NCBI GenBank assembly: GCA_041662625.1
Contig: JBAZSB010000001.1
Span: 681,385-745,384, forward strand
Reading direction: 5' to 3'
Source of the DNA: Patescibacteria group bacterium
GTDB lineage: Bacteria > Patescibacteriota > Patescibacteriia > Buchananbacterales > UBA6539
Length of the DNA: 64,000 bases
Numbering within the stretch: the stretch's first letter is position 1; every line of letters begins with the position of its first letter. The notes under the pieces were generated by a model, which worked only from the letters and a program-made list of their open reading frames with translations, was not told the DNA's origin and made no database searches. Both the position numbers and the translations under genes were made by a program. Below are positions 10,549 through 50,368 of this stretch, piece after piece.

Positions 10549-11925
10549 TCAAGAGGTATTAAGGTCTTTATTTCTGAAATTCAACTGCCGTAAATTAAGG
10601 CCTAAAATTAGCCAAAAAATCATCACCCCAAAATAAAACGTCCAGAAATAATGGTCAAACAAACTGATGATTAAAACCGAAATTAGGCAAAGAAAAACAA
10701 TTACTTTTTCTAAATGCTGGGGTGATTGGTCAATTACAATTTTTGTTTTGATTAAATTCCAAAATAATAAACCTAAAATCAAAATAAAAAGTAAGGCGCC
10801 AAGAATTCCTAGTTCGGCTAAAACCAATAAATAAATATTATGAACGGGTTGATAATAATAACCCGGCCAAGAACTATTAACTATTTGGTAGACGCCCAAA
10901 GTGTAATCACCAATTCCTGTCCCCTGCCAAGGATTGGTTTTAATTATTTCCCAAGCCTGCTTGGTAAAAGCAACCCGTAAATAAATTGAAGCAACTTCCA
11001 AATCTTGTTCACCACTAATTCTGGTCAGCAACGGCTGCCAAAGACTTGAACCTAAAACACTATAAATTATCAGGGTGAGGAGCAAAATTTTAAAAAAAGT
11101 GTTTCGCCAAAGATAATAACGGTGATAAACCAACCAAAAAGTTAAAATAGTTAAACTAAAAATTAAAGCCACCCACCCCGAGCGGGAAAAACTGAAAAAT
11201 AAAGCCGGCATAATAGCGATGAGACTAACTAAAACAAAGATTCGTTGGCCTTGTTTTTTGGCAATCAAAGCTAAATAAAGTAAAAGCAATATGCCAACCA
11301 CCAAAAACCCCGCTAAAATATTAGGATGGGGTAAGCTCCCATAAGCCCTAAGCCACCGTTCACTGTTAGTCTGTAGAATAATTGCTCCGCCCAAAGTGGA
11401 GAAATGTTCGGCCAGACCTAACCATTTATTTGCAAAAACATACTGGGTAAAAAACTGCCAAATGGCAAAAATACCCTGTATGGCAGCTGAACTGACCCAG
11501 ACCACAGCAATTTTTTCCAGTTTAAAACCAAAAACTAAGACTAGTGAAAGCAAAGCCATGGCTTCAAGTAGCGTAAACCACCGGATGTAGGCCAGCTGAG
11601 CATCAAGTGACCAAATTATTGAAACTCCGGCCAGTCCCAAAAATAAAACTAAAAGCCAATAGATTGAAACTGCGGGCTTCGTTAAACGAATTAAGATTTT
11701 ATCAAATTCGAATTTTGGTAAATGACGATTTTTGATCAACCAAAAACCATAAAGTAATAAAATCAGCCATAATAAAATTTCTGTCCCATAAAGACTAAAG
11801 CGTCCATATTCCCAAACAAAACCATTCAAATAAGTCTCATGCCAGATTAATCTAGTCTGCCAGGGTAGTAAAAATAAAAAGAGGTAAAAACCAAATTCAA
11901 TTATCTTTTTTAGTTTGTCCATCAA
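10549..11925 (-). CDS. O-antigen ligase / Wzy_C-family polytopic membrane protein
   Basis: 458 aa, at least 10 TM; periplasmic loop ...YGSLPHPNILAGFL... matches the O-antigen ligase HPN-x-L motif. Confidence 0.55.
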   Translation of the reverse strand: MMDKLKKIIEFGFYLFLFLLPWQTRLIWHETYLNGFVWEYGRFSLYGTEILLWLILLLYGFWLIKNRHLPKFEFDKILIRLTKPAVSIYWLLVLFLGLAGVSIIWSLDAQLAYIRWFTLLEAMALLSLVLVFGFKLEKIAVVWVSSAAIQGIFAIWQFFTQYVFANKWLGLAEHFSTLGGAIILQTNSERWLRAYGSLPHPNILAGFLVVGILLLLYLALIAKKQGQRIFVLVSLIAIMPALFFSFSRSGWVALIFSLTILTFWLVYHRYYLWRNTFFKILLLTLIIYSVLGSSLWQPLLTRISGEQDLEVASIYLRVAFTKQAWEIIKTNPWQGTGIGDYTLGVYQIVNSSWPGYYYQPVHNIYLLVLAELGILGALLFILILGLLFWNLIKTKIVIDQSPQHLEKVIVFLCLISVLIISLFDHYFWTFYFGVMIFWLILGLNLRQLNFRNKDLNTS

Positions 11926-12532
11926 TTCTTTGGATAAATTTAGGTCGTTCCAGATAAAAATGAATAACCACCGTGGCTAAAATTGCCCCGATTGTATTAA
12001 AAAGTAGGTCTAAGGCATTATTAAAATAACCACCAACTTTTTCCGCCACCCCAAAAGCAACAACCGCAAATAGCTCAACTAATTCATTTATTGCCCCTAA
12101 ACCAATAGCCATTAAAACCAAAATTAAAGCAAAAATCGGATAGTTCTGACGGATTCGCTCATCAACAAAATCAAACAATAAACTATAAAGAGTCAAAGTG
12201 GCAATAAAGGTGGCATAGGTATGAATAAAATTATCATAACGGATTATTCCCGAAATCAGATAAAAATCATACAATCTAACAGAGCCCAAATAAAAATTTC
12301 CGCCTAAAAGATGCAAAAAACCTAAAATTGATAAATTAAACAAAATAAAAAATCCTAAATGCAATTTTTTAGTCAAAGTGATCACTAAATAAATTATTAC
12401 TACCATTAAAACGGTGTAATACAAAAATTCAAAATTAGCCCAAATGATGGCATTAACTGTGAAAGCAATCAAATAAGCAACGGTGAAAATTAAAATTAAA
12501 TAATTTTTCCTTTGAAATAAAAAATCAATCAT
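11897..12532 (-). CDS. hypothetical polytopic membrane protein
   Basis: 211 aa, about 6 TM helices; overlaps neighbours by a few codons (operon-like). Confidence 0.4.
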   Translation of the reverse strand: MIDFLFQRKNYLILIFTVAYLIAFTVNAIIWANFEFLYYTVLMVVIIYLVITLTKKLHLGFFILFNLSILGFLHLLGGNFYLGSVRLYDFYLISGIIRYDNFIHTYATFIATLTLYSLLFDFVDERIRQNYPIFALILVLMAIGLGAINELVELFAVVAFGVAEKVGGYFNNALDLLFNTIGAILATVVIHFYLERPKFIQRIDGQTKKDN

Positions 12533-13533: not shown

Positions 13534-14583
13534 TTACTCATCATCCTTCGGTTTTTCAATTTGGAGAGGGTCAATCTTACTTTCACCACCAGCAATCCGG
13601 ACAATATCTTTATCAATTTTCTTAAACTCCTTAGAGGCTAAATTATACATCCCAACAGTGGTGCCAAGGTGATTACCAAGTTTCTGATGATAATCTTCAT
13701 AAGCCTTAAGATGATTCTGCAACTTACCGATATTTTTGAGAATTTCCTTCGTTTGCTCTTGAATCTGAAAAGCTTTCAAACCCTGCCAAAGCGACTGCAA
13801 AGTAACATAGAAAGTAGTTGGAGAAACAATATGGACTTTTTTTTGATTAATGGCATAATCAATCAAATCCCGAGTATTAACCTTTATCGCTCCGACCTTA
13901 TTAACCAACAAATCATAAAATATTCCCTCAGCCGGGATAAACATAAAAGCAAAATCCATTGTCCCCTCTTCGGGACGGATATATTTAGCGGTTTCATCAA
14001 TTCTTTTCTTTAAATCATTTTTAAAAGTATTTTCTAATTGTTCATGACGAACAGGATCAGACTCTTCCACAATCCGATTATAATTTTCCAAAGAAAATTT
14101 GGAGTCAATCGGCAAAATTTTCTCGGCCAAGAAAATCACCGCATCAACTATTTCCCCGTCTTTAAATTTATATTGCATTTGATATTGTTGCGGCTGAAAA
14201 GCATTACGAAGTAACATTTCTAATTGATACTCACCAAAAACTCCCCGCTGCTTTGGATTTTTTAAAATATCCTGAAGCCGCTGCAATTGATCGGCAAAGT
14301 TGACTACTTGACGGTTGGTCTCATCTAGTTTAGTTAACCTTTCGGTTACCTCCCGAATAATTTGGGCGCTCTGGCCAAACTGCTGCTGCATAATCTGAGT
14401 TGATTGGCCCAATTTGTTATCTAAAGTTTTATTAACTTCATTAATCTGATTTTGTAACATTAACATTGATTGATCATCTTTTGGCTTAACTGCCAACGCT
14501 TTCATTCTTTTGTCCAAAAAAAAGATAACCGCACCAAAACCAGCAATGATTATGACAACAATAATGATTAATAAAAATTCCAT
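13534..14583 (-). CDS. rmuC: DNA recombination protein RmuC-family
   Basis: 349 aa; N-terminal TM, coiled coil, then ...DAVIFLAEKILPIDSKFSLENY... and ...FAFMFIPAEGIFYDLL... typical of the RmuC domain. Confidence 0.65.
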   Translation of the reverse strand: MEFLLIIIVVIIIAGFGAVIFFLDKRMKALAVKPKDDQSMLMLQNQINEVNKTLDNKLGQSTQIMQQQFGQSAQIIREVTERLTKLDETNRQVVNFADQLQRLQDILKNPKQRGVFGEYQLEMLLRNAFQPQQYQMQYKFKDGEIVDAVIFLAEKILPIDSKFSLENYNRIVEESDPVRHEQLENTFKNDLKKRIDETAKYIRPEEGTMDFAFMFIPAEGIFYDLLVNKVGAIKVNTRDLIDYAINQKKVHIVSPTTFYVTLQSLWQGLKAFQIQEQTKEILKNIGKLQNHLKAYEDYHQKLGNHLGTTVGMYNLASKEFKKIDKDIVRIAGGESKIDPLQIEKPKDDE

Positions 14584-38636: not shown

Positions 38637-39551
38637 ATGGAAAAACTCATCCGCCAATTTCTCGAATACCTTGAGGTCGAACGCGGCCGCAGTCTTAATA
38701 CTATTCAAAACTACGATTTTTATCTTAAGCGTTTTTTAAACTGGTCAAAAATAAATTCCCCAAGCCAAATTAATCAGGACCTGATCCGGACCTACCGGCT
38801 TTGGCTGAACCGACAAACCGACCGTTTGGGTAAACCATTAAAAAAATCCACCCAAAACTACCATTTAATTGCCCTCCGGTCATTTTTAAAATATCTGTCT
38901 AAGCAAGATGTTAAATCTTTTGCTCCCGAAAAAATTGAGCTGGCCAAGATGCCGGAAAGGCAAGTGGAATTTTTGGAAGGTGATGATTTGGAAAGATTAC
39001 TTGAAGCGCCTTTAAAAACTAGCGAGTCAAAAATTATCCAGTTGCGCGATAAAGCGATTTTGGAATTACTCTTTTCTACCGGCCTGCGGGTATCAGAGCT
39101 GGCTAACTTAAAAAAAGATCAAATCAATTTGAAAAAAGATGAATTTACCATTCGGGGCAAAGGCGAAAAACTGCGGGTGGTCTTTTTGTCCAACCAGACT
39201 AAATATTGGCTTAAACTTTACTCCGAAGCCCGGCGCGACCTTTCACCAAGTTTATTTGTCCGAGCTGATCGGGCTAAAGGCAAAAAAGACCCGGAAAATC
39301 TGACGCCCCGAAGCATCCAAAGGCTGATCAAAAAATATTCCAAAGCCGCTGGCATCACCAAAAAAGTTACACCTCATACCATGAGACATTCTTTTGCCAC
39401 TGACTTATTGATTAACGGCGCTGACATCCGTTCGGTCCAAGCGATGCTGGGCCATGCTTCAATCACCACCACCCAAATTTACACCCATATTACCAATCAG
39501 CAACTAAGGGAAGTTTATAAAACATTTCATCAGCGTCGTAAAAAGGGTTGA
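38637..39551 (+). CDS. xerC: tyrosine recombinase XerC/XerD-like
   Basis: 304 aa; core-binding N domain, ...IRGKGEKLRVVF..., HTMRHSFATDLL..., LGHASITTTQIYTHI (R..H-R-H/Y catalytic residues). Confidence 0.8.
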   Translation: MEKLIRQFLEYLEVERGRSLNTIQNYDFYLKRFLNWSKINSPSQINQDLIRTYRLWLNRQTDRLGKPLKKSTQNYHLIALRSFLKYLSKQDVKSFAPEKIELAKMPERQVEFLEGDDLERLLEAPLKTSESKIIQLRDKAILELLFSTGLRVSELANLKKDQINLKKDEFTIRGKGEKLRVVFLSNQTKYWLKLYSEARRDLSPSLFVRADRAKGKKDPENLTPRSIQRLIKKYSKAAGITKKVTPHTMRHSFATDLLINGADIRSVQAMLGHASITTTQIYTHITNQQLREVYKTFHQRRKKG

Positions 39552-39767: not shown

Positions 39768-39841
39768 GCGCCCATAGCTCAACTGGATAGAGCATCAGCT
39801 TCCGGAGCTGGGGGTTGTAGGTTCAAATCCTACTGGGCGCA
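39768..39841 (+). tRNA. tRNA-Arg (anticodon CCG)
   Basis: Acceptor GCGCCCA/TGGGCGC, anticodon loop TTCCGGA, T arm GTAGG-TTCAAAT-CCTAC, discriminator A; starts 1 nt after the previous tRNA. Confidence 0.85.
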
Positions 39842-39877
39842 CTATTCCAGATTTGACTTTACACATTTATATAGGAA

Positions 39878-40055
39878 GGTGCGCACCCGCCTCTGGCGGG
39901 CAATGGATAGAATGTGGGCTTCCGGAGTCCCGACTGCGTCGGGATTCGATTCCTACTGGGAGCGATGGCGATGGCAAGTAGGAAAGCAGGTTCTCCGCCA
40001 CATTATCAAATTACAAAAAGGCGGATCCGCCTCTGGCGGAAAGTCCTGCTGGGCG
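39878..40055 (+). pseudogene. degenerate tRNA-Arg(CCG)-like fragments carrying GC hairpin inserts
   Basis: 39883-39970 mirrors tRNA-Arg(CCG) (CAATGGATAGAATGT, GGGCTTCCGGAGTCCC, ...CCTACTGGGAGCGA) with a CCGCC-TCT-GGCGG hairpin in the D region. 39971-40055 has a T-arm-like GCAGGTTC / TCCTGC split by the 47-nt element 39994-40040, then TGGGCGCG. Confidence 0.6.
39994..40040. repeat. 46-47 nt GC-rich hairpin element copy 1 (TCCGCC-N20-GGCGGATCCGCC-N3-GGCGGA) inserted in a T-loop
   Basis: About 90% identical to copy at 49211-49256; both inserted between ..GGTTC and the 3' half of a tRNA T-loop. Confidence 0.7.
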
Positions 40056-40142
40056 CGAATAATAACTTTTAACATTTGACAATTAACTATTAGCAGTAAA
40101 GCTTAAAGTTAAAAGTCAAATGTTAACTGCTAATTGTTATAT

Positions 40143-40178
40143 GGTGGCCATGGTGAAATGGTTATCACTAGAGTTTGC
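40143..40178 (+). repeat. partial duplicate of tRNA-His 5' half
   Basis: GTGGCCATGGTGAAATGGTTATCACTAGAGTTTG identical to 40252-40286, then diverges. Confidence 0.7.
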
Positions 40179-40250
40179 CTGCCCGACGGCCAAACTAAAA
40201 ATTCGTAAAAATAATTTAATACAAAAATTCCTAATTCTAGGGCGCAAAAG

Positions 40251-40323
40251 GGTGGCCATGGTGAAATGGTTATCACTAGAGTTTGTGGCACTCTCGTTAC
40301 GGGTTCGATTCCCGTTGGCCACC
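40251..40323 (+). tRNA. tRNA-His (anticodon GTG) with G-1
   Basis: G-1 + GTGGCCA acceptor, D arm GTGA-AATGGTTA-TCAC, anticodon loop TTGTGGC, T arm ACGGG-TTCGATT-CCCGT, 3' TGGCCAC + discriminator C. Confidence 0.8.
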
Positions 40324-41925
40324 CCTTTGCGCCTTATTTGGGGCTAAAACCCCGATTGACGCACCACCTAAGGGGTAATTTACAGGTTCTAACCACCTAC
40401 TGTATCGAAGTATTTGAGATAAGCCGTTTTCAACTATTGAGAACGGTTTATTTAGTTCTATAGTGAGTTTTTTGTCTTTCAGGGTAAGGTTCGAGCCTAT
40501 AGTGGTTAGGATGGCCTTTTTAGTCTCTAAGTCGCCATGCTCAAAGGCATAGGTGGCATTACAGGCAAAATCAAAGGTCTTTTTAACCAGCTCGCGCCAG
40601 TTGTCGGCCCGGTGTTCGGTCCCACGCATTGCTTCCCTGATTTTATTCAGCTGACCGGTTAATTCGGTCTTCTTTTGTTTATATTGTTCGTCATCGATCT
40701 GATCTTTTATCTTCATGTTTAACAAGTTATCTAACTGCCTTTCAAGGCTTTCACAGGTCCGCTGTTGATTATCATAAATCTTCTGCCGGTCTTCAGTTTC
40801 TTGGTCATTCATTTTATCAAGATATTCAAGCGCTATATCTTTAAAAGTTTCTGGTATTTTAATTTTTATCAGCTGGTTAACTATCTGCAATTCTAAATCT
40901 CTGACTTCCACGGTTTTTTGGGAACAGGTGGGTAACTTTCTTTTAATGCAACGATAATAAGTATAATGATGAACATGGCCATTGCCTTTGTTGGTTTTAA
41001 ATTTTTCTTCTGCGGTAATCATTGATCCGCACTCACCGCACCTGATCATACCAGTAAAAGCAAACACATGCTTCTGGGGCCGGGCTTTTCCTTTACGGCC
41101 CAAAAGTTCCTGAACCCTCCAGTATTCCTCTTCGATTATCATTTTCTCATGTTTGCCATCATACCAGTTGCCGCTACCCACTGGATATTCAAACTTACCA
41201 TAATAAAAAGGGTCATTAAAAATTCTGTATATTGAGCTTTCACTCATTGGCTTACCGCCCATTCTTCTTTTTACAGGCGTCCTATAACCCCACTCATTAT
41301 TGAGCTTGTTTAATATCTCGGATACAGGATGTAAACCAGTCAACATTAACTCAAACGCTTTTCTAATTAAAGGAAACCTTTCTGGATCCGTTAAAACTTT
41401 TTTTTCTCCTTTTAACCCAAGTTTATCTCCCATATAGCCCGGCTTAACAACACAAGGATTCCAACCCTGATTAACCTTTGCCATCAGGCCTCTTCTGGTA
41501 TTTGTTTTTAAGTCTAAAATAAACTGGTTAGCCATACCAAATTCAACATTCATAAGCATAACATTGTCTTCGGGATAATAATCACGTTCTGGCGTCCTTA
41601 TATGCTTAATAATGCCATTCTGTAAGAGATGTGATGTTTTACCACTATCCTCGGCATTTCTAGACAAACGATCCAGCTTCCAGCAAAGTATTCCCTGCGC
41701 CTCGCCACTTTTTATCCGATCCAACATCTCATTAAATACCTCTCGGCCCGTATCTTTAGCTGATTTTGACTCAGTAAATATTTTTACTATTTTAAGACTA
41801 AATTTGTTTGCTACTTCTTTCAGAGAATCAATTTGTGAGGGAATAGATAAAACCTGCCGGTCTTCTGATTCGGTTGACTTCCGGGCATAGATAAAATATT
41901 TAATTTTGTCCGAGTTGTCCTTCAT
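40297..41925 (-). CDS. large serine recombinase (resolvase/invertase N-domain + recombinase domain + zinc ribbon)
   Basis: 542 aa; N-terminal ...FIYARKSTESEDRQVLSIPSQIDSL... catalytic-Ser region, central recombinase domain, ...CGECGSMITAEEKFKTNKGNGHVHHYTYYRC... zinc ribbon; last 9 codons (GQRESNP) are encoded by the complement of the tRNA-His T-arm/acceptor. Confidence 0.8.
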   Translation of the reverse strand: MKDNSDKIKYFIYARKSTESEDRQVLSIPSQIDSLKEVANKFSLKIVKIFTESKSAKDTGREVFNEMLDRIKSGEAQGILCWKLDRLSRNAEDSGKTSHLLQNGIIKHIRTPERDYYPEDNVMLMNVEFGMANQFILDLKTNTRRGLMAKVNQGWNPCVVKPGYMGDKLGLKGEKKVLTDPERFPLIRKAFELMLTGLHPVSEILNKLNNEWGYRTPVKRRMGGKPMSESSIYRIFNDPFYYGKFEYPVGSGNWYDGKHEKMIIEEEYWRVQELLGRKGKARPQKHVFAFTGMIRCGECGSMITAEEKFKTNKGNGHVHHYTYYRCIKRKLPTCSQKTVEVRDLELQIVNQLIKIKIPETFKDIALEYLDKMNDQETEDRQKIYDNQQRTCESLERQLDNLLNMKIKDQIDDEQYKQKKTELTGQLNKIREAMRGTEHRADNWRELVKKTFDFACNATYAFEHGDLETKKAILTTIGSNLTLKDKKLTIELNKPFSIVENGLSQILRYSRWLEPVNYPLGGASIGVLAPNKAQRGGQRESNP

Positions 41926-42334
41926 ATTTTTTGTTTACTTTAATCGCACCAAACATTAAAAGGATAAGGGTTAAATAAACCAGAAACGGCACAAGCATTG
42001 TTAAAAAATTTATTACTCCAAATTCCTTTAGAACTGTTAGATTAAAAGAATCTAAAGTGGTTAAATAAAAGTCCAAGCCGGCAGTGGCTAAAAATACGAG
42101 AATAAAAAGCCAGCTGAAAGCTCTAAAAATTCTACCTAAAATAATTTTGTTGGTCTTGCTAGTGAAATAAAACAAGGTTAATGGCATGAACACCAGAAAT
42201 ATAAAATAAGAATAATACCAAAGCAAAAAATAAAGATGGCCGAAATTGTAATCGTCTTTAGTAAAACCAAAAATCCAACAAACTGCTATGACTAATAAGA
42301 TTGATAGACCTTGTAAGTGTAATTTTTCAGACAT
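41900..42334 (-). CDS. hypothetical small polytopic membrane protein (island cargo)
   Basis: 144 aa; 4 predicted TM; AT-rich codon usage. Confidence 0.4.
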   Translation of the reverse strand: MSEKLHLQGLSILLVIAVCWIFGFTKDDYNFGHLYFLLWYYSYFIFLVFMPLTLFYFTSKTNKIILGRIFRAFSWLFILVFLATAGLDFYLTTLDSFNLTVLKEFGVINFLTMLVPFLVYLTLILLMFGAIKVNKKYEGQLGQN

Positions 42335-42351
42335 ACTTTTAGGATTATTAA

Positions 42352-42882
42352 TTATAGATCACCGGTTAAAAAATGTAGTATAAAGTATGACAAAATTATT
42401 CCGGCGGGTATTATAAAATAAATAGCTGATTCAATGATTCTTTTGATTGACCGCCTTCTACCATCACTCATCTTTGTTGATTTTTCATCTACTTTCATAT
42501 CTGCATAAATAAGCCCACCAAACAAAAAACTAAAAATAGCAGTGCCAATACCAATTCTAATAAAAAGACCCTTGGTTTCTGTCCCTACCGGACTGTAAAT
42601 AGGATCACCCCATTCTATACATTCCCTATCAGGACCATTACCCCCGGACATAATACATGGTATTTCTTTAAGATACTTTCCGTCTGGTGTTATATTGCCA
42701 AGTATATTGAGTGCAAAAAAGACGAAGAATAAAGTAGCCCAAATAATTAACCAATACCCTATGGTATATTTCGGCACTTCTTTTGATGATGAGGCGCGAG
42801 GTAATTTCATATTTTTATTTTGGTGAGCCACTATAAAGCCCCCACCAGTTTTAAGGACCGAAGTCCTTCCATGCGCAAACAC
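42352..42882 (-). CDS. hypothetical membrane protein (island cargo)
   Basis: 176 aa; true start probably the internal MKLPRASSS; 12-bp perfect inverted repeat CATGCGCAAACA/TGTTTGCGCATG overlaps the annotated start. Confidence 0.4.
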   Translation of the reverse strand: MFAHGRTSVLKTGGGFIVAHQNKNMKLPRASSSKEVPKYTIGYWLIIWATLFFVFFALNILGNITPDGKYLKEIPCIMSGGNGPDRECIEWGDPIYSPVGTETKGLFIRIGIGTAIFSFLFGGLIYADMKVDEKSTKMSDGRRRSIKRIIESAIYFIIPAGIILSYFILHFLTGDL

Positions 42883-43062
42883 GGCCTGATGAGGGCATCA
42901 TAAATGTTTGCGCATGGTATTGAGTTATGCTTTAATTTTAGCTCTGCTTAGGGGGTTTGTAAAGATCAAAAGTTAATTTTTATATACAGAATTGGGGTAG
43001 TGCCAGTATCTAAAATCATTTTTTGAAAAATCTAGGAGTCACTCTTACATATAAAAATTTAT

Positions 43063-43674
43063 TTAACATCCTCCCTCCCTAGCTATTGTCTTAAAATTGC
43101 CATCAATTATATCGTCCTTTCTGAGATTACCGGAACGAGCGGCTAAAGCCAGCAGACTTAAAGCGGTTCTGTTTGAATTGCCATCCAGCTCTTTTATTTT
43201 TAAAGTTATTAGCTCATGTCTGTCTTTTGCTTCCATGCTTTTGAAAAGCCACGTCATTGCCTGATTAGTTGAAATCTCATCCGGCTTGGCCAATGCTTCG
43301 GCTAATTTTAATTCGCCTAGCTCTAAAGATTTTTTATAGATCGCTTGCCTTACTACTTCTTCATCTATGGCTTTATCGTCAGCCAACTGTAAAATCTTTC
43401 TTACCTTAAGTCGCTGATCTGCGTCGTATTTGCGAAAAAATCGGTAGCACGTCATATAACCCGCCTTACCCTTGAGTCGCGGTTCAATCTGAGCAAAATA
43501 TTGCTGGTGCATTTGCTGAAGCGAAAGCTTGCCTTTTTGTTCCTCGTAAACCTCAACTAGCTTCTCCATAAAAGGAGATGAGGCAATAATTGATTGAGAG
43601 TTTATAAGCTTCATGGTTGTAAATTCAGTGTTAAATAGGTGTAATTGATCTTGGGCCGCGTAATTCTTAAACAA
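43063..43674 (-). CDS. hypothetical protein (moderately GC-rich, island cargo)
   Basis: 203 aa helical protein; no motif recognised. Confidence 0.35.
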   Translation of the reverse strand: MFKNYAAQDQLHLFNTEFTTMKLINSQSIIASSPFMEKLVEVYEEQKGKLSLQQMHQQYFAQIEPRLKGKAGYMTCYRFFRKYDADQRLKVRKILQLADDKAIDEEVVRQAIYKKSLELGELKLAEALAKPDEISTNQAMTWLFKSMEAKDRHELITLKIKELDGNSNRTALSLLALAARSGNLRKDDIIDGNFKTIAREGGC

Positions 43675-43801
43675 GCTTGTTTCTGACTTACTTTAGGGCT
43701 TACCAAGATGATTCAGGCGAAACTAATGGAGTAAAATGAGTTGACTAATGCCGGTCCGGGATGACTCCTGCTCTTATTTCTGATTATATGGATCAAAACT
43801 T

Positions 43802-43972
43802 CTTAGGATGATAAAAATCCAAATATTTATTAAGTATGTCATCGGCAATGTGAGACTCCGGTTTTTTAAATTTAAAAGCCACTCTTCTTAGCTTCTCTTT
43901 GGTTGCAAGCGTAATTCTAACGTGCTGGGTATGTAAATTTGCGGAGTTAATTTTCTTAGTCATATTAAGTAA
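43802..43972 (-). CDS. possible ribbon-helix-helix (CopG/Arc-like) small DNA-binding protein
   Basis: Not in ORF track (56 aa): MTKKINSANLHTQHVRITLATKEKLRRVAFKFKKPESHIADDILNKYLDFYHPK; the HVRITLATKEKLRRVA beta-strand/helix pattern is typical of RHH regulators. Confidence 0.3.
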
Positions 43973-44208
43973 CTTGTTACCTTGTAGCCATCAGCGACTT
44001 CTATGGGCCAATAACACTCAAATGCTTTTTAAGGAATATTATCATCGTTTAAAGAATAGATTGTAAAATTTTGGCGATGGCCGATCCCAAATTTTACAGG
44101 GTTGATACTGGGCAAATTGGCCACCCGGTCGAGAAGTCGCTACTCGTTGCCGGGATTTAATCTGCCCACTATCTTGCGTCGAGTTTTGTCTGAGCATCAC
44201 GCAAAAGC

Positions 44209-44397
44209 TCAGCTATTCTCATTGTTAAAATTTTGTTTTGGTATTGGTCTATAAATAACCCTAAACAGGTTAACTAAATTATTTGCCATTTCTAAAGCCT
44301 CCTGCTCAGTAATTTCCTGATCAAATTCCTGCTTATAAGCAGTTTGGAATTTTCGGATCATTGTTTGTTTATCCTGCGGAGACATAAAAACGGCCAT
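44209..44397 (-). CDS. small hypothetical protein
   Basis: 62 aa, helical, no family. Confidence 0.25.
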   Translation of the reverse strand: MAVFMSPQDKQTMIRKFQTAYKQEFDQEITEQEALEMANNLVNLFRVIYRPIPKQNFNNENS

Positions 44398-44714
44398 TTA
44401 CTGTTTTGGCCGTTTGCTATTTGTTTAATTTAAATCCCCGGCGGAAGACAAAGAAAATAGCACAAACGCTGCCAATTGACAGTTAATGCACTTCTCTTTG
44501 ACTTCAGACCGGGGTGTGTCTAACTCATTAGTCCATCCCGTATTGCCTCCCTATACCTTTTCAGCTAGGGCCAGAATATGGGGGTGGTGGATTCTTGCTA
44601 GGGGTGTCCCGCGTAAACCCGAAAAGTAATATTTATTTTTGAATTAACTAAAATTATTGTAGCACCACATAATTGGCTGTCAATAGATTTTTTCGCAATT
44701 TTAGAGTGGCAAAG

Positions 44715-44808
44715 GATTGACAAATACAGACTGTGGAATGTTCACTTCGTTGCTAATTAAAGGGGAAATTCAGGGGTGCAATGGGTTGACAAATAACCTG
44801 TGGATAAG
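44715..44808 (+). promoter_or_regulatory. tandem direct repeats G(G/A)TTGACAAATA-N-CTGTGGA(A/T) upstream of the 519-aa island gene (promoter/operator candidates)
   Basis: Two copies about 68 bp apart (44715-44740; 44783-44808), each with a TTGACA hexamer; additional ATTGACAGTTAA at 44476 and 46398. Confidence 0.4.
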
Positions 44809-44849
44809 CTTGATTTAAACCTAGATTAAAACTATGCTTAAAAAGGAAT

Positions 44850-46409
44850 ATGCAAAATCAAGATGTATTCGAATTATACAAACCATTAAGAAATCATCTA
44901 AGACAAATTGATCTTTATGGATCTTTTTATACTATTTGGAATTATAGCCAACATCTATTATCCAACAAAAAATTCCCCAACGATGTCTTAGTTGCACCAG
45001 AATTTCTATCTTTAGATCAAATAGGAAAAATGAGGATGGTCTCTCTTTGGGAATTAGAAACATTATGTAAGGAAATAATAATAAACTCTCAAGAAGTGGA
45101 GGGGAAAAAAACATTAAAAAATTGGGAGTATTTCGCTAATGCAATAAATAAATTAAAAAAATTAGAAAATGATATTAGCGGAAAATTTGTAGATAAAAAT
45201 AATATATTATTGGAGATGCACAGAATTGCCCATAGACAATTTCCATGGCAGGCTGAAAAACCAGCGGCTATATCAATGACAAGATATTATAAAATTTTTA
45301 ATTATGAACCAATAAGTGAAATTATTAAAAAGGTGACTAATCTGTCTACCCAAGAATTATATATAATCGCAACGGCCTTATTTGGTCTCTACGAAAATAA
45401 ATTCACATTATTTTATCCCACCAAAATAGAAATAAAAGGAATATCAATAAAAAATTTTGACTACTTTTTAAACCATTTTTGCTGCGATATAAAAACACTT
45501 AAGGAAAAATTACTAAAAGAGCAAGAAATCAATGAAAAATTTGCTTACGCTTTCGGATCCTTAAGAGCCTATCCGATAATAAAAATGGCCATTCCTTCTG
45601 GTAAAGATGGCTTAGTGTGTCCACTACCAACATTACTGTTTTGGCGATTAACTAATGGCATCTATTATGAAATTTTTCGACAAAAGGATTTCGATAACTA
45701 TTTTGGTTTTTCTTTCCAGACATATGTTGGAGAGGTTATTAAAAAAGCTACCTATAATAAAAAGATAAAATACTATGCTGAAGAACAATATAGGATCGGA
45801 AAGGAACTAAAAGATACGATCGATTGGATAGTTGCAGATGAAGAAGGAACTTTGTTTATTGAGTGTAAAACAAAACGAATGACTTTCGGCGCCAAAACTG
45901 AGATAAATTCCATGGATGAACTGGAAAAAGAGCTAGATAAAGCGGCTGAATTTATATTACAAGTTTACAAAGCAATTAAAGATTGTTTGGACAATAAGTA
46001 TCCATCGTATAAACACAGATCTAATAAGAATATATTTCCCTTAATCGTTACATTGGAAGATTGGTATCTATTTGGTGATCTCACCTTAGAAAAATTAAAT
46101 GAAAAAATCAAAATTATGCTAAGTAATCACAAGATACCGACATCATGGTTAGATGATTACCCATATTCGATATGCTCCGTGTCAGAATTTGAAAAAATCA
46201 CACAAGTAATCCAACTTATAGATATTAAGGAATTTATGAGTAAAAAAGTTTTTGATCAAGACTGTAAAAAATGGAACTTTAGTCCATTTATCGGCAGTAA
46301 ATTCTCAGAAATAAACAACAAAATAAAATTCTTATTTCCCGAAGATTTTGATAGAATTTTCCCTCGACATTTGAGAGGAGATCAAAAAATTACACAAATT
46401 GACAGTTAA
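44850..46409 (+). CDS. hypothetical protein with PD-(D/E)xK nuclease-like motif (island cargo)
   Basis: 519 aa, AT-rich; ...DTIDWIVADEEGTLFIECKTKRMTF... fits hhhD-x(9)-ExK of restriction-endonuclease-fold nucleases; rest unassigned. Confidence 0.35.
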   Translation: MQNQDVFELYKPLRNHLRQIDLYGSFYTIWNYSQHLLSNKKFPNDVLVAPEFLSLDQIGKMRMVSLWELETLCKEIIINSQEVEGKKTLKNWEYFANAINKLKKLENDISGKFVDKNNILLEMHRIAHRQFPWQAEKPAAISMTRYYKIFNYEPISEIIKKVTNLSTQELYIIATALFGLYENKFTLFYPTKIEIKGISIKNFDYFLNHFCCDIKTLKEKLLKEQEINEKFAYAFGSLRAYPIIKMAIPSGKDGLVCPLPTLLFWRLTNGIYYEIFRQKDFDNYFGFSFQTYVGEVIKKATYNKKIKYYAEEQYRIGKELKDTIDWIVADEEGTLFIECKTKRMTFGAKTEINSMDELEKELDKAAEFILQVYKAIKDCLDNKYPSYKHRSNKNIFPLIVTLEDWYLFGDLTLEKLNEKIKIMLSNHKIPTSWLDDYPYSICSVSEFEKITQVIQLIDIKEFMSKKVFDQDCKKWNFSPFIGSKFSEINNKIKFLFPEDFDRIFPRHLRGDQKITQIDS

Positions 46410-46435
46410 CTGTAAAAGGTAGAATATAAAATTGT

Positions 46436-46891
46436 ATGAAAAAACTAATCAACATAGCGCTTTTTCTTTTATTATTTTGGCCGTTAGCCAGCTTGGCTCA
46501 TCCCGGCCGAACTGATGCTTATGGCTGTCATACCTGCCGGACAAATTGTCCATCATGGGGTTTAGATTATGATGAATACCACTGTCATAATACAAAGGCT
46601 TTACCACAACCAGAAGAACCAATCAAAAGCACTTACGGAGCTGGCGGCACAGGTTATACAGATCCAGCACCAGAATACAAAAAACCAGCACCTATTGAAA
46701 ACAATATCAATCCTAATGTAAATATCAATTCAGAAACTAATAGTAATAAAAACAATTTCCTCAATCAAAAAGTATTAGGAACAGAATATAATGAACCATC
46801 CTCCAAAGAAGATGATAATAATTGGCTTGGCTGGATTATTGGCCTAGGTGCTGCTGGCGCTGGAGGGTATTGGCTGACGAAAAAAAAATAA
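46436..46891 (+). CDS. YHYH-domain protein with signal peptide and C-terminal Gly-rich membrane anchor
   Basis: 151 aa; ...HPGRTDAYGCHTCRTNCPSWGLDYDEYHCH... matches the YHYH motif family; C-terminal GLGAAGAGGYWLTKKK. Confidence 0.55.
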   Translation: MKKLINIALFLLLFWPLASLAHPGRTDAYGCHTCRTNCPSWGLDYDEYHCHNTKALPQPEEPIKSTYGAGGTGYTDPAPEYKKPAPIENNINPNVNINSETNSNKNNFLNQKVLGTEYNEPSSKEDDNNWLGWIIGLGAAGAGGYWLTKKK

Positions 46892-46892
46892 T

Positions 46893-47873
46893 ATGTCTAA
46901 GATAAAAAAAGAAATTTACAATCTAGAATTTCCTCCTTACGTTAGCCAGCTAGAGATTGGGGGGTATATTTTTAAACGAATTGATAATTATAATCAGTTA
47001 ATAACCGAGTTACAACACTTTGTTAATATTTCCGGCTCTGAAAACCCGATTCAACCTAACACTGGGAAACATATGATTACTGCGACCGTATCTATACCTG
47101 AGAACGAAATAAAATGTTGTCTTCCTTGGACAGATCCAAATAGCACTCAAATTCTAGATGTATTATTTCTTTTAACAATATTTACTGGAAGAAGTGTTTT
47201 TGTTAAAGAATGGGAAGGCGATGCCCCAATTATCGCTGATCATCGCATACATCAATGGGGAGGCCAACTGCAGTGTTCCATTAAATATGAAGGTATGTGG
47301 AGGCACAAAGATACCGGAGAGATAAAGACGGAGCAAGAAATGGAAAAAAGTAAAATACCAATTTTTGATTATGATCATATAGATATTGGATTTGAAAAAA
47401 GTTTAAACAAAATACTAACGCTCATCTCAAATCCAGAATGGCAAGAAAAATATTCCGGTGGCTACTTCCTTTTTTTATTTAGAGACGCCACATTTAGACA
47501 AATACTAGAAAAATCGTTCCTAACTTGTTGGACAATATGGGAACAGATATTTTCCATTGAAAATTCCAAATGGCTGCCAGATGAAGAAATTTTTAGATTG
47601 GGGGGCGATAGAAAAATTGCCTATATTTTGAATAAATATTTTAATAAAAAAATAGATAAACGAGCATTGGCAAATATCAAACAACTTGCTAAATCAAGAA
47701 ATCGACTAGTGCATTTCGGCAAAAAGACTAATGACGTAACAAACGAGGAAAAAGAAATGTTTATTAGACTAACTGAACAGCTTATTGCATTGATATTAGG
47801 ATTAGAACCATCCAATATATTTAATTCTCTGGAAAAATTAAATAGTTTTCTAAATAAACAGCCGCATTGCTAA
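46893..47873 (+). CDS. hypothetical protein with C-terminal HEPN-like domain (canonical R-N-x-x-x-H motif)
   Basis: 326 aa; start 2 nt after the YHYH gene stop (coupled); ...ANIKQLAKSRNRLVHFGKK... gives RNxxxH in a helical C-terminal about 100 aa. Confidence 0.4.
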   Translation: MSKIKKEIYNLEFPPYVSQLEIGGYIFKRIDNYNQLITELQHFVNISGSENPIQPNTGKHMITATVSIPENEIKCCLPWTDPNSTQILDVLFLLTIFTGRSVFVKEWEGDAPIIADHRIHQWGGQLQCSIKYEGMWRHKDTGEIKTEQEMEKSKIPIFDYDHIDIGFEKSLNKILTLISNPEWQEKYSGGYFLFLFRDATFRQILEKSFLTCWTIWEQIFSIENSKWLPDEEIFRLGGDRKIAYILNKYFNKKIDKRALANIKQLAKSRNRLVHFGKKTNDVTNEEKEMFIRLTEQLIALILGLEPSNIFNSLEKLNSFLNKQPHC

Positions 47874-47973
47874 TATTAGTAGTTAATCTAAATAATATCT
47901 GGTTTTAGTATCAAATTTATTTAGCTAAAAAAATAAATATAAAATTAAAATATTAAAATAGACATGCAAAATT

Positions 47974-48627
47974 ATGTCCATGGGTATTGTTCTAATATTT
48001 CCTGGCGGTGTATTCTTGGCAGCCGATGGTCGCCAAAGTAATCCTATTAGGGGCAACAAACTAATTAGTGATAGCGTATCTAAAATAGAAAAAATTGATT
48101 CTAAACTTTTTATAATCCATTTAGGTATCTCTCAAGCCTCTAGTGTATCAGCTAAAGATTTCGCCAAAAGATATAAACTAAACGATGACCCGGAAAAACT
48201 AAAAACAAAACTTGAGACAAGCGTATCGATTGGTCTTCATAGTATAATACCTAGACTAAGCCCAGATATAGATATCCATAATCCAGCTATTAAAAGTATT
48301 CTTCTTCTGGGTGGGATCGCCCAACAAACCTCGTTTATTGCCGGAGCGCTTTACGGTATTGATAACAAATCGACAATCTGCGAAACTAGCTGCTACAAAA
48401 ATATTGTTCTAGGCGGAGAAGAATTGAACGCGAATACTTTTTTCAACAAAAAGTGTGAAGAATTGATTCATGGCCAAATATCAACTGATGAATTAGTGCA
48501 AAAACTAATAAATGCATCACGGGACACCATAAGAATGGCGGAAAAAAAAGATAAAAGGATTGGTGGAAAAATTAGCTATGCTGTAGCACAAATAAATGGT
48601 CCCACGATATTTAATACAATAAAATAA
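47974..48627 (+). CDS. hypothetical protein with proteasome-beta/HslV-like (Ntn-hydrolase) N-terminal pattern
   Basis: 217 aa; MSMGIVLIFPGGVFLAADGRQSNPIRGNKLISDSVSKIEKIDSKLFIIHLG parallels TTIVG..GVV.AAD.R.T.G..V.D...KI..I....CC.AG of proteasome beta subunits, but lacks the N-terminal Thr. Confidence 0.3.
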   Translation: MSMGIVLIFPGGVFLAADGRQSNPIRGNKLISDSVSKIEKIDSKLFIIHLGISQASSVSAKDFAKRYKLNDDPEKLKTKLETSVSIGLHSIIPRLSPDIDIHNPAIKSILLLGGIAQQTSFIAGALYGIDNKSTICETSCYKNIVLGGEELNANTFFNKKCEELIHGQISTDELVQKLINASRDTIRMAEKKDKRIGGKISYAVAQINGPTIFNTIK

Positions 48628-48642
48628 TAACGTGACTCTGCT

Positions 48643-49083
48643 ATGTCTTTTACTAGCCATATATATCAGATAAAATTTTCAGGATCAAGAATGCCTGAAA
48701 AAATTTTATTGTTTGAAAGCAATAAAATAATTATTGATTTTAACAAATTAAAACCTGACGATTACAGTTTTAAATTTGGTAGCTATTTCGGCACCAGTTT
48801 TGCACAAAAAATAATTACCATTAAAGACCCTAAATATATAACCAATGATAAATCCCCCAACAAAAAATTTTACCCCATATCAATTCTACATGAAATAGGT
48901 CATTCCAAACTACACAAAAGTCCTCCAAACAAAAAACCAGTGGGGCTTATAAAATACGAGATGGAAGCATGGGAATATGCGCTTGAAGAGATAAAAGACA
49001 AAAAACTAAAATATAATGCCGAGGAACTCCAAAAATTCATTTCAAAATGTCTTAAATCTTATATAAAAAATAATCACGCTTAG
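48643..49083 (+). CDS. ImmA/IrrE-family zinc metallopeptidase (HEIGH...E.EAW.YA)
   Basis: 146 aa; ...PISILHEIGHSKLH... then about 25 aa later ...YEMEAWEYALEEI..., matching the ImmA/IrrE HExxH...ExEANxFA signature. Confidence 0.6.
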   Translation: MSFTSHIYQIKFSGSRMPEKILLFESNKIIIDFNKLKPDDYSFKFGSYFGTSFAQKIITIKDPKYITNDKSPNKKFYPISILHEIGHSKLHKSPPNKKPVGLIKYEMEAWEYALEEIKDKKLKYNAEELQKFISKCLKSYIKNNHA

Positions 49084-49124
49084 TAAAACAAATCTTTAAC
49101 TCCTTAATTATCTCTGCTAAATAA

Positions 49125-49151
49125 GTTCTAACGTCGTCCCTTTCCCGACCC
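49125..49151. repeat. 27-nt direct repeat GTTCTAACGTCGTCCCT(T/C)TCCCGACCC, copy a
   Basis: 26/27 identical to 50342-50368; the pair brackets the GC-rich hydrolase gene. Confidence 0.75.
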
Positions 49152-49189
49152 TTTTGCGCCTTACCCTATTAACCCACTTTGGCGGCGGG

Positions 49190-49273
49190 TGGCACTCTCG
49201 TTACGGGTTCTCCGCCACATTATTAAATCAGAAAAGGCGGATCCGCCTTCGGCGGAGATTCCCGTAGGCCACC
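49190..49273 (+). pseudogene. tRNA-His 3'-portion copy interrupted in the T-loop by the 46-nt GC hairpin element (right att-like junction of island)
   Basis: GTGGCACTCTCGTTACGGGTTC + [49211-49256 insert] + GATTCCCGTAGGCCACC; matches tRNA-His 40285-40322 apart from the insert and one substitution. Confidence 0.7.
49211..49256. repeat. 46-47 nt GC-rich hairpin element copy 2
   Basis: TCCGCCACATTATTAAATCAGAAAAGGCGGATCCGCCTTCGGCGGA; see copy 1 at 39994-40040. Confidence 0.7.
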
Positions 49274-49411
49274 TGAACCTACGATGCAAATCGTAGTTTC
49301 AGGAAAAGACATCTCCCCTGTTTTGGGGAGGTATTTTTTATAAAAAAACAGAGCCCGCGCGAGTTTCACCTCGAGCAAGGCTCTAGATTAAAGTGTTATG
49401 TACCCATGAGC

Positions 49412-50221
49412 TTAGTCAGCCTCCGCCCATTGCCTGACAGATTCGGTAATTAACCGTTTCATCTCCGCCTGTTGGTCGGGCTCAGCGTAACTATGCTCAG
49501 CCCCGATCACAACTTGGACTTCGGTCCCAAGAACCGCGGCCAATCTACGGCTCTGGTCAATCGGCACGCAAGTGTCCTTCTCACCGTGGATGATCAGGGT
49601 GGAGCAACGGATGCCGGCTGACATACGCATCGTGTCATATGACTGAAGATCGACCCAGTAGTCGTAACTCAGGTCATACTCCACGATGTCATGATTATCA
49701 TGCAGGGTTCCCTGCTCTTGCCATTCCCTAATCTGTGTATTACCCAGCCGTTCTTGCCAGAAGCGTATTGGTTCAGTCACAGGGGACTTCAGGATCAGCC
49801 GTTCAACGGTCGGATCTTGGGCAGCCACAACCAGTGAGACTAGCCCGCCAAAGCTGGCACCGAGCAAGGCAATATGGTATTGCCCAATTCCTCGTAAATA
49901 AGCAATCACGGCGTTCAGACTGGCAACAGCCTTAGTCAGGGTAACATCGGCTGATACAGCGTATCCACTTGTGTGGCCGTAGAGCGGACCATGGCCGTAG
50001 TAGTCATACCGAACGGTTCCGATGCTCAAACGGTTAAACTCCCCCTGAAACTCTTTGTAGAGTCCGCTGTCTCCGCTTGAGGTAAATCCATGCGACATAA
50101 CAACAACTGCCCGGGCATCAGTCGGAATTGAGACGATCGTGCGCACAGGATTACCCGCCGAGTCATAAAGCACCATTGTTTCCTCTATACACATTAGACG
50201 ATTCCTCCCTTCGCTAGACAA
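49412..50221 (-). CDS. alpha/beta-hydrolase fold protein (GxSxG; dienelactone hydrolase/S9-like), GC-rich cassette
   Basis: 269 aa; nucleophile elbow LLGASFGGLV, ...HGEKDTCVP..., ...GAEHSY...; about 53% GC; RBS AAGGGAGG. Confidence 0.7.
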   Translation of the reverse strand: MSSEGRNRLMCIEETMVLYDSAGNPVRTIVSIPTDARAVVVMSHGFTSSGDSGLYKEFQGEFNRLSIGTVRYDYYGHGPLYGHTSGYAVSADVTLTKAVASLNAVIAYLRGIGQYHIALLGASFGGLVSLVVAAQDPTVERLILKSPVTEPIRFWQERLGNTQIREWQEQGTLHDNHDIVEYDLSYDYWVDLQSYDTMRMSAGIRCSTLIIHGEKDTCVPIDQSRRLAAVLGTEVQVVIGAEHSYAEPDQQAEMKRLITESVRQWAEAD

Positions 50222-50341
50222 AGGTTCAAAACGTTAATCTAATATTACATAATCATTAAGGTTTGTCAATAATTTTGGTATTTCGTATCGACTGCATCAC
50301 AAAAATAAATTCTTAATTCTCTAATAATAATGGATAACCTC

Positions 50342-50368
50342 GTTCTAACGTCGTCCCTCTCCCGACCC
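50342..50368. repeat. 27-nt direct repeat copy b
   Basis: See 49125-49151. Confidence 0.75.

Follow-up and report, generated by a model that had tools for sequence, protein, structure and literature searches.

Where does a mobile island begin and end when the tRNA gene beside it is present both whole and in pieces? This question is raised by a 64,000-nucleotide (nt) stretch of the genome of a Patescibacteria group bacterium (contig JBAZSB010000001.1, positions 681,385 to 745,384; hereafter the window, in whose numbering all unassigned coordinates are given). Here, an intact tRNA-His gene abuts the gene of a large serine recombinase (LSR), and further pieces of tRNA-His lie on both sides. A previous reading, made from the sequence only, saw a site-specific integrated element at tRNA-His that reached to a second copy of the tRNA 3' portion. 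The LSR-carrying insertion stands, but its right boundary and the origin of the tRNA pieces have to be drawn anew. We consider it likely that a cargo island of about 8.8 kb (about 40337-49151) was integrated by its own LSR at the extreme 3' end of tRNA-His, that the island ends on the right in a short motif resembling the end of a tRNA (the G motif), and that an earlier event had already placed this tRNA-His, on a small cassette, inside an older one.

The two genes at the left edge are the following.

40251-40325, plus strand: the present, intact tRNA-His(GTG) gene (ARAGORN, 40252-40325; Rfam, 40252-40323, 59.4 bits; G-1 at 40251)
40297-41925, minus strand: the LSR gene, 542 amino acids (aa), with Resolvase, Recombinase and Zn_ribbon_recom domains

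ARAGORN and Rfam agree on the intact tRNA-His, and the minus-strand recombinase reported next to it is indeed a three-domain protein of 542 aa (PF00239, E = 3.3e-18; PF07508, 7.3e-8; PF13408, 3.2e-10). Residues Y10, Y13, R15, K16 and S17 are invariant among 25 homologues, with the catalytic motif YARKS in invariant columns, and S17 is read as the catalytic serine from its place in the resolvase YxRxS motif.

That this gene pair marks an insertion can be judged from related loci, which were gathered through the recombinase (L001-L003, L089, L091 and L118-L122) and through a neighboring host Xer-like tyrosine recombinase (L084-L088). Two features of the window anchor the comparison.

38637-39551: Xer-like tyrosine recombinase gene, just upstream of the tRNA cluster
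49274-49339, plus strand: native 3' flank of tRNA-His, a hairpin and then a terminator, aligning with the tRNA-His flank in empty L085

The loci share the host gene order PNPase, NYN-domain gene, rpsO, Xer-like recombinase gene, tRNA-Arg(TCT), tRNA-Arg(CCG) and tRNA-His. Every relative, whether its site is empty or occupied, has the Xer-like recombinase, which is therefore a host gene and lies outside the island. The closest relative is L084/L085, whose host proteins on both sides of the site are 87-95% identical to those of the window, and it supplies the empty site that the sequence-only reading had envisaged. In L085, the genes run Arg-Arg-His, the hairpin and terminator aligning to 49274-49339 come immediately after tRNA-His, and genes for an MFS protein, a DEAD-box helicase and TerC stand beyond them, with no LSR. 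L086 and L087/88 are also empty, and L001/L120, L002, L003/L119 and L089 are occupied, with different cargo. The LSR is 80% identical to that of L119, the more distant host (Xer-like recombinase, 78%), but only 67% identical to that of L001, the closer host (Xer-like recombinase, 83%); on these values, LSR and host relationships do not agree. The GC content is 30-34% at 45-49 kb, versus 44-49% in the flanks. The empty and occupied sites, the differing cargo, the incongruent LSR relationships and the low GC content together argue that the segment was inserted and behaves in its features like a mobile island.

The right end of this insertion depends on three short features.

49126-49151, plus strand: G motif TTCTAACGTCGTCCCTTTCCCGACCC, a 26-nt mimic of a tRNA T arm and acceptor, 26/26 identical in L119
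40321-40336: overlap region O at the left attachment (att) site, attL, ACCCCTTTGCGCCTTA, 15/16 identical to 49148-49163
49148-49163: overlap region O at the right site, attR, ACCCTTTTGCGCCTTA

The right att site had been placed at 49190-49273. Related elements, however, end in the 26-nt G motif, and the copy of it in the window lies 38 nt further in. The motif is found at the island's distal end in the window, L001, L002, L089 and L119, and analogous motifs (AGG-TTCTAAY, a few bases and an acceptor-like strand) occur in L005, L032 and L068, where the acceptor-like part matches the target tRNA. In L032 (tRNA-Asn), 9.9 kb separates the tRNA from the analogous motif, whose final bases are the tRNA's own CCGCGGAGCCA; in L068 (tRNA-His), it is 9.7 kb away and is followed by a terminator. 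A strict regular expression for the motif gave 12 matches on the tRNA-sense strand versus 1 on the opposite strand. Rfam contained no match for the G motif or for the hairpin inserts described below. Almost no related locus has a long tRNA repeat at its far side, and no direct repeat of the tRNA 3' part was found at the LSR's own distal end in the window, only the 16-nt overlap and the degenerate mimic. Thus read, the true right end of the LSR island is probably the G motif, and the long repeat at 49189-49273 appears to belong to an older event.

Between the 16-nt overlaps, the island measures 8,827 bp. In L089, what comes immediately after the G motif is the flank that tRNA-His has in empty L085, and in L119, the motif is followed by a terminator laid out like that after tRNA-His in empty L086. 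Both junctions locate the crossover to the tRNA's final few bases, and we infer that it lies in or next to overlap O. The distal G motifs without a split tRNA in L002, L119, L032 and L068 led us to reject a crossover of this LSR in either the anticodon loop or the T loop. The pair L043/L050 was dropped as a crossover marker; in L043, a tRNA-Asn lies 9.5 kb on, and a second element has probably inserted.

A further candidate for the crossover lies within the LSR open reading frame (ORF).

40385-40394: T-loop-like motif GGTTCTAACC inside the LSR ORF

This motif, as GGTTCTAACC or GCTCGAACCTC, stands at the equivalent position in nearly all homologues, where it is read in two frames, as WLEP/RLEP or as ARTS/VRTS, so that its conservation is at the level of DNA and not of protein; it could be part of the att site. 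Crossover at this position has some support in L002, L091 and L032, but two points make it less likely: downstream of tRNA-His, naive empty sites lack the motif, and the G motif of L089 adjoins the native tRNA flank. An independent assembly, L118 (JGI Ga0172379_10046243), with a recombinase 100% identical to that of the window, breaks at a point corresponding to window 40357, 21 nt from the overlap; possibly the assembly forked there because of the att site.

The att sites would then be laid out in a simple manner. attL would consist of the tRNA, whose T arm and acceptor serve as the B arm, then the short overlap O, and then P', in which a substitute trailer bearing a small hairpin precedes the C-terminal coding region of the LSR. 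attR would consist of the G motif as the P arm, then O, and then the former trailer of the tRNA. Integration would leave the tRNA intact except for two bases after the discriminator, where the native CCA (L086/L087) becomes CCT at attL (compare L119), and would exchange its 3' flank.

The overlap between the LSR ORF and the tRNA is no peculiarity of this locus; it is the rule in this recombinase family. We surveyed one genome per species, which gave 80 loci, mostly from Patescibacteria, with recombinases 39-51% identical, and classified the 73 in which the end of the ORF lies inside the contig. At 55 of these 73 loci, the LSR abuts a tRNA gene: in 42, the stop codon lies inside an antisense tRNA (12 isoacceptor types, Asn being the commonest); in 7, the tRNA is adjacent or reached by read-through; and in 6, there is a T arm without an ARAGORN tRNA call. 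In 2 of the last group, Rfam finds a group I intron in the abutting tRNA gene (L030, 11642-11990; L077, 11602-11807), which explains the missing calls. At another 7 loci, the conserved motif adjoins the ORF instead, and 11 are unclassified. With thousands of homologues, again mostly in Patescibacteria, this is a large and apparently undescribed family of LSRs that target tRNA genes.

In the window, the LSR C-terminus ends in ..KAQRGGQRESNP followed by the stop. The tail had been described as nine codons encoded by the tRNA T arm and acceptor; the antisense reading GQRESNP plus stop is right, but its extent is seven codons plus the stop (40320-40297). Across the family, the overlap between ORF and tRNA ranges from 10 to 75 nt, and the integrated-state tail hence looks unselected. 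Among the 120 closest homologues, 52 tails are antisense tRNA (DSN.. and similar) and 31 are of the form ..DVRT.., which is the antisense reading of GGTTCTAACGTC. At the DVRT-tail loci, the G motif adjoins the ORF. In L037, a tRNA-His lies 640 nt beyond the G motif, and in L058 and L059, a second motif lies 2-4 kb beyond it; such loci may be free attP sites or junctions within tandem arrays.

What, then, are the other pieces of tRNA-His in the window? Together with the two parts of a cassette, they are as follows.

40143-40177, plus strand: 5' half (G-1 to G34) of an older tRNA-His, 35/35 nt identical to 40251-40285
40178-40250, plus strand: left part of the cassette, in which an AT-rich spacer separates an outer stem arm (40178-40195) from a 10-nt leader (40241-40250) pairing with the trailer
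49152-49188, plus strand: right part of the cassette, consisting of the original trailer of the present tRNA-His and an outer stem arm ending ..CACTTTGGCGGCGG
49189-49210, plus strand: positions 34-55 of the older tRNA-His, 22 nt identical to 40285-40306
49211-49256, plus strand: a double hairpin of 46 nt (J) that interrupts the T loop of the older tRNA-His, directly after GGTTC
49257-49273, plus strand: positions 56-72 of the older tRNA-His, matching 40307-40323 at 16/17 positions

Both duplicates that had been reported are real: the 5' half is identical over 35 nt, and the second 3' copy does align to tRNA-His, with an interruption in its T loop (22 nt exact, a 46-nt insert, then 16/17). The mismatch is at position 66, which is A in the older tRNA-His and in relatives but T in the present gene. 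The exact repeats of 35 and 22 nt, and a 24-nt pattern that occurs twice versus 0.00 times expected from shuffles, are far above chance.

The flanks show to which gene these pieces belong. The upstream TTAATTGTTA-repeat flank of the 5' half aligns with empty L086 and with L089, and the native downstream flank adjoins 49257-49273; contrary to the earlier view, the intact tRNA-His is thus not in the native position. Since the native flanks sit on the two extra pieces, the present tRNA-His lies within inserted DNA, and the pieces are best explained as the halves of one older gene, 40143-40177 and 49189-49273, which would have been split earlier, at the anticodon, by a cassette of 185 nt. The left part of this cassette (40178-40250) has no counterpart in the empty sites. 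On the right, nucleotides 49151-49160 are the exact complement of the 10-nt leader 40241-40250, and it is this complementarity of the 10 nt after the G motif to the leader of the present tRNA-His that identifies them as the former trailer of that tRNA. Complementarity of leader and trailer could also suggest a split tRNA joined by trans-splicing, an idea that was set aside because an intact tRNA-His is present.

Removal of the island in silico leaves 304 nt (40143-40336 joined to 49164-49273), in the order old 5' half, 185-nt cassette and old 3' half with its 46-nt T-loop hairpin; within the cassette, the present tRNA-His with its leader and trailer lies between the AT-rich spacer and the second outer stem arm, and the first outer stem arm precedes the spacer. 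The reconstructed RNA folds as a cloverleaf inside a cloverleaf (-131 kcal/mol, z = -8.2), a score to be read with the caution that palindromic inserts alone would score strongly. L001 has the same nested layout, with a decayed middle part and a T-loop insert of 110 nt. In L089, the full tRNA-His beside the recombinase is a foreign allele, the 5' fragment upstream of it is the resident allele, and the slot upstream of the full tRNA holds an LAGLIDADG ORF (11662-12108; weak Pfam match). The ORFs between 5' tRNA fragment and full tRNA in L017, L038 and L079 we take, by eye, to be GIY-YIG nucleases. In the order of events that we infer, the target tRNA-His would have arrived first, on the 185-nt cassette inside the anticodon loop of the original tRNA-His, so replacing the resident gene in a separate event; the recombinase island would then have integrated at the 3' end of the replacement, leaving the halves of the original gene to bracket both cassette and island.

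The same pieces could also have come in a single step. One composite element of 9,011 bp (40178-49188), bounded by the GC-rich arms 40178-40195 and 49170-49188 and carrying the replacement tRNA-His, the LSR and the cargo, might have entered the anticodon loop of the resident tRNA-His. This would agree with the 5' half ending and the 3' half beginning at the same base, G34, with the partial complementarity of the two ends, with the foreign and resident alleles of L089 and with the recurrence of the layout in L001. Against it, closely related LSRs stand at tRNA-His without a split gene in L002 and L119; a single insertion would leave the G motif and the overlap inside the right end, and the complementarity of leader and trailer, unexplained; and the homing-endonuclease genes in the slot upstream of the full tRNA in related loci point to a separate agent for the replacement. 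We consider such a composite element unlikely.

Several observations nevertheless weigh against a mobile LSR island that entered at the 3' end of tRNA-His. First, canonical serine-integrase sites (about 40-50 bp) have imperfect inverted repeats around a central dinucleotide, and no clear repeat of this kind is found in the attP or attB reconstructed from the window; a dyad was seen only in L032, where it is centered on the other T-loop-like motif, AGGTTCTAAC. Second, no directionality factor, which serine integrases need for excision, was identified. Third, the chromosomal G motifs that abut LSR genes in L037, L058 and L059 need tandem arrays formed by attP x attL recombination, which canonical serine integrases are not known to produce. 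Fourth, there is no circular contig among the related contigs, no excised circle or attP junction was seen, and viral collections hold almost no relatives, with only one close relative in IMG/VR. Finally, the nested layout is the same in its entirety in the window and in L001, whose LSRs are only 67% identical, and the element may thus be old and immobile at this locus. The last two points, and the many relic fragments around the site, also favor a different account, in which the LSR is a resident and no longer mobile gene, either a relic or one with another role such as local rearrangement, and the region is a graveyard of old events. We regard this as quite unlikely, as the LSR ORF is full length with invariant catalytic residues, the G motif is identical at 26 of 26 positions in a different genome (L119), the cargo varies among relatives and the closest relative has no island.

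Least probable of all, and very improbable in our view, is the layout first proposed, in which the island runs from tRNA-His to 49189-49273, the copy there is the displaced 3' part of the host gene (attR) and the element brought the intact tRNA's 3' part with it, for although 49257-49273 and its flank are the end of the original host tRNA-His and the 22 + 17-nt repeat is real, the native 5' position is held by the half at 40143 and not by the intact tRNA, the conserved element end (G motif and 16-nt overlap) lies 38 nt inside, the related islands in L002, L089, L119, L032 and L068 end in G motifs without a long tRNA repeat, and serine recombinases need no long repeat.

If the LSR island did integrate at the 3' end of tRNA-His as we favor, a consequence follows for the recombinase itself. 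Because the LSR ORF crosses O, the residues after ..KAQRG are set by whatever sequence adjoins O on its far side. While the element is integrated, the final seven residues, GQRESNP, and the stop are read from the antisense strand of the tRNA. Joining the island ends in silico gives an ORF of 566 aa ending ..RERDDVRTYLAEIIKELKICFTKRDYFLYKI (..RERDDVRTY..); in an excised circle, the LSR ORF would thus continue across the G motif and encode a protein of 566 aa. It could be, although we think it doubtful, that the ORF straddles its own att site deliberately, so that the tail reports the state of the element and biases the direction of recombination, with the tRNA-in-tRNA cassette as a second novel element. 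If this were true, the excised circle would make the longer protein with its ..DDVRT(Y/F).. extension, the integrated copy would be truncated by antisense tRNA, and a built-in switch would exist within a serine integrase family specialized on tRNA 3' ends.

Besides the LSR, the island carries nine ORFs.

41900-42334, minus strand: 144-aa membrane protein, 82% identical to a protein of L003
42352-42882, minus strand: 176-aa protein, with no family match
43063-43674, minus strand: 203-aa protein, with no family match
44209-44397, minus strand: 62-aa ORF, with no significant Pfam match
44850-46409, plus strand: 519-aa protein, with a weak DUF234 match
46436-46891, plus strand: 151-aa protein with hydrophobic N and C termini, 75% identical to a protein of L003
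46893-47873, plus strand: 326-aa protein, with a weak match to Apea-like HEPN
47974-48627, plus strand: 217-aa protein, with no family match
48643-49083, plus strand: 146-aa protein with a HEIGH motif and a weak metalloprotease (HExxH) match

None of the nine has a convincing match to phage, conjugation or defense families. A PHROG search of the cargo returned nothing except the weak metalloprotease, and the defense search (including PADLOC) gave only sub-threshold matches to HEPN_Apea, DUF3644 and CapP-like families and nothing solid. By its gene content, which includes no structural, packaging or lysis genes, the island is not a prophage. The 62-aa ORF is the only gene besides the LSR common to the islands of the window, L001, L002 and L003, and is a candidate regulator or directionality factor. 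The termini of the 151-aa protein are read as a signal peptide and a membrane anchor.

The surroundings of the island bear marks of further events. Downstream of the native tRNA-His flank, there is a second, solitary G motif.

50343-50368, plus strand: solitary G motif with a terminator hairpin, just upstream of the MFS gene

It probably marks where an older insertion, now decayed and covering 49340-50368, came to an end. Between ORF126 and the MFS gene of L085 lies a weak counterpart, in which only TTCTAAG and the left flank align with the L089 G motif. Empty L086 likewise has a solitary G motif and terminator (14263-14288), a few kb downstream of tRNA-His. The genes between tRNA-His and the solitary motif encode an alpha/beta hydrolase in the window and a znu-type FUR-ZnuA-ABC transporter set in L086, and may be remnants of older insertions. 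In a region on the island side of L005 (7592-7706, minus strand), there is a LOOT RNA (Rfam RF03000, 72 bits).

Upstream of the island, the tRNA-Arg fragments that had been noticed outside the segment are real and prove to be two.

39881-39964 (about), plus strand: pseudo-tRNA-Arg(CCG) relic, called by neither ARAGORN nor Rfam
39987-40057, plus strand: relic 3' fragment of the original tRNA-Arg(CCG), with T stem GCAGG/CCTGC as in empty L085

The pseudo-tRNA is the orthologue of the functional tRNA-Arg(CCG) of L001/L002, with hairpins in place of the D stem and of the variable/T-stem region. In the 3' fragment, a 47-nt hairpin insert (39994-40040) follows the T-loop GGTTC and is a second copy of the insert at 49211-49256. 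The functional tRNA-Arg(CCG) at 39768-39842 is a newer copy that resembles the neighboring tRNA-Arg(TCT), to which it is 76% identical. T-loop inserts in relic fragments are also found in L001 (~2672-2790, minus strand), L119 (two, 11480-12300, minus strand) and L122 (1230-1780, minus strand). Every relic tRNA fragment seen (His, Arg-CCG and Arg-TCT) has a GC-stemmed T-loop hairpin insert of 29-110 nt, and the functional tRNAs have none; the insertion point is after GGTTC, or after GGTTT in the Arg-CCG relic of L119. These hairpins could be a small palindromic mobile element with the T loop as its target. A Y1 transposase gene is present in the conserved neighborhood (L001, L086).

Several known systems resemble parts of this one. 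First, phiC31, Bxb1, A118, SprA and CcrAB share with our LSR the resolvase, recombinase and zinc ribbon domains, and phiC31-type serine integrases also have their gene at the edge of the element by the att site and no long direct repeat. They differ in that the family here targets tRNA 3' ends, of at least 12 isoacceptor types; in that the ORF here crosses the att site and the P arm mimics a tRNA T arm and acceptor strand; and in that the canonical inverted-repeat att site is not recognized here. The known natural targets of LSRs are almost all protein-coding genes or intergenic sites. Second, P4-like tRNA islands with tyrosine integrases likewise keep a functional tRNA, leave relic fragments and tandem remnants and show presence/absence polymorphism. 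The enzyme class, however, is different; their block of identity begins in the anticodon or T loop and reaches the 3' end, whereas here it covers only between a few bases and 16 nt at the extreme 3' end; and their distal end is a true tRNA repeat, whereas here it is a degenerate mimic. The sublocations within tRNA genes used by tyrosine integrases are said to have been set out by Williams in 2002. Third, in SSV1-type archaeal viruses, attP also lies inside the integrase gene, and integration changes the ORF, but there the enzyme is a tyrosine recombinase and its gene is split in two, whereas here the last codons are exchanged and the ORF stays complete.

A further parallel comes from the tycheposons of Prochlorococcus, which are likewise cargo islands at tRNA genes where new elements push older ones outwards; in 27 of 937 of them, the recombinase is a large serine enzyme and not a tyrosine recombinase (bioRxiv 10.1101/2020.12.28.424599). 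The host phylum is different. For these serine-recombinase elements, the text consulted gives no account of the att sites (bioRxiv 10.1101/2020.12.28.424599). The large LSR survey of Durrant et al. makes no mention of tRNA, and we found nothing on serine recombinases at tRNA genes in Patescibacteria in the literature beyond the tycheposon paper.

In general, LSRs are the main tools for inserting large pieces of DNA, and recognition of a T arm and acceptor with the tRNA left intact would widen their known range of targets. The att sites would follow a simple logic, a tRNA end paired with a mimic of a tRNA end, and an ORF laid across the att site offers a testable idea for the control of direction. 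That tRNA genes here have been repeatedly replaced, split and littered with hairpin inserts matters for tRNA annotation. For the Patescibacteria, LSR islands at tRNA ends would explain how small, recombination-poor genomes take up cargo.

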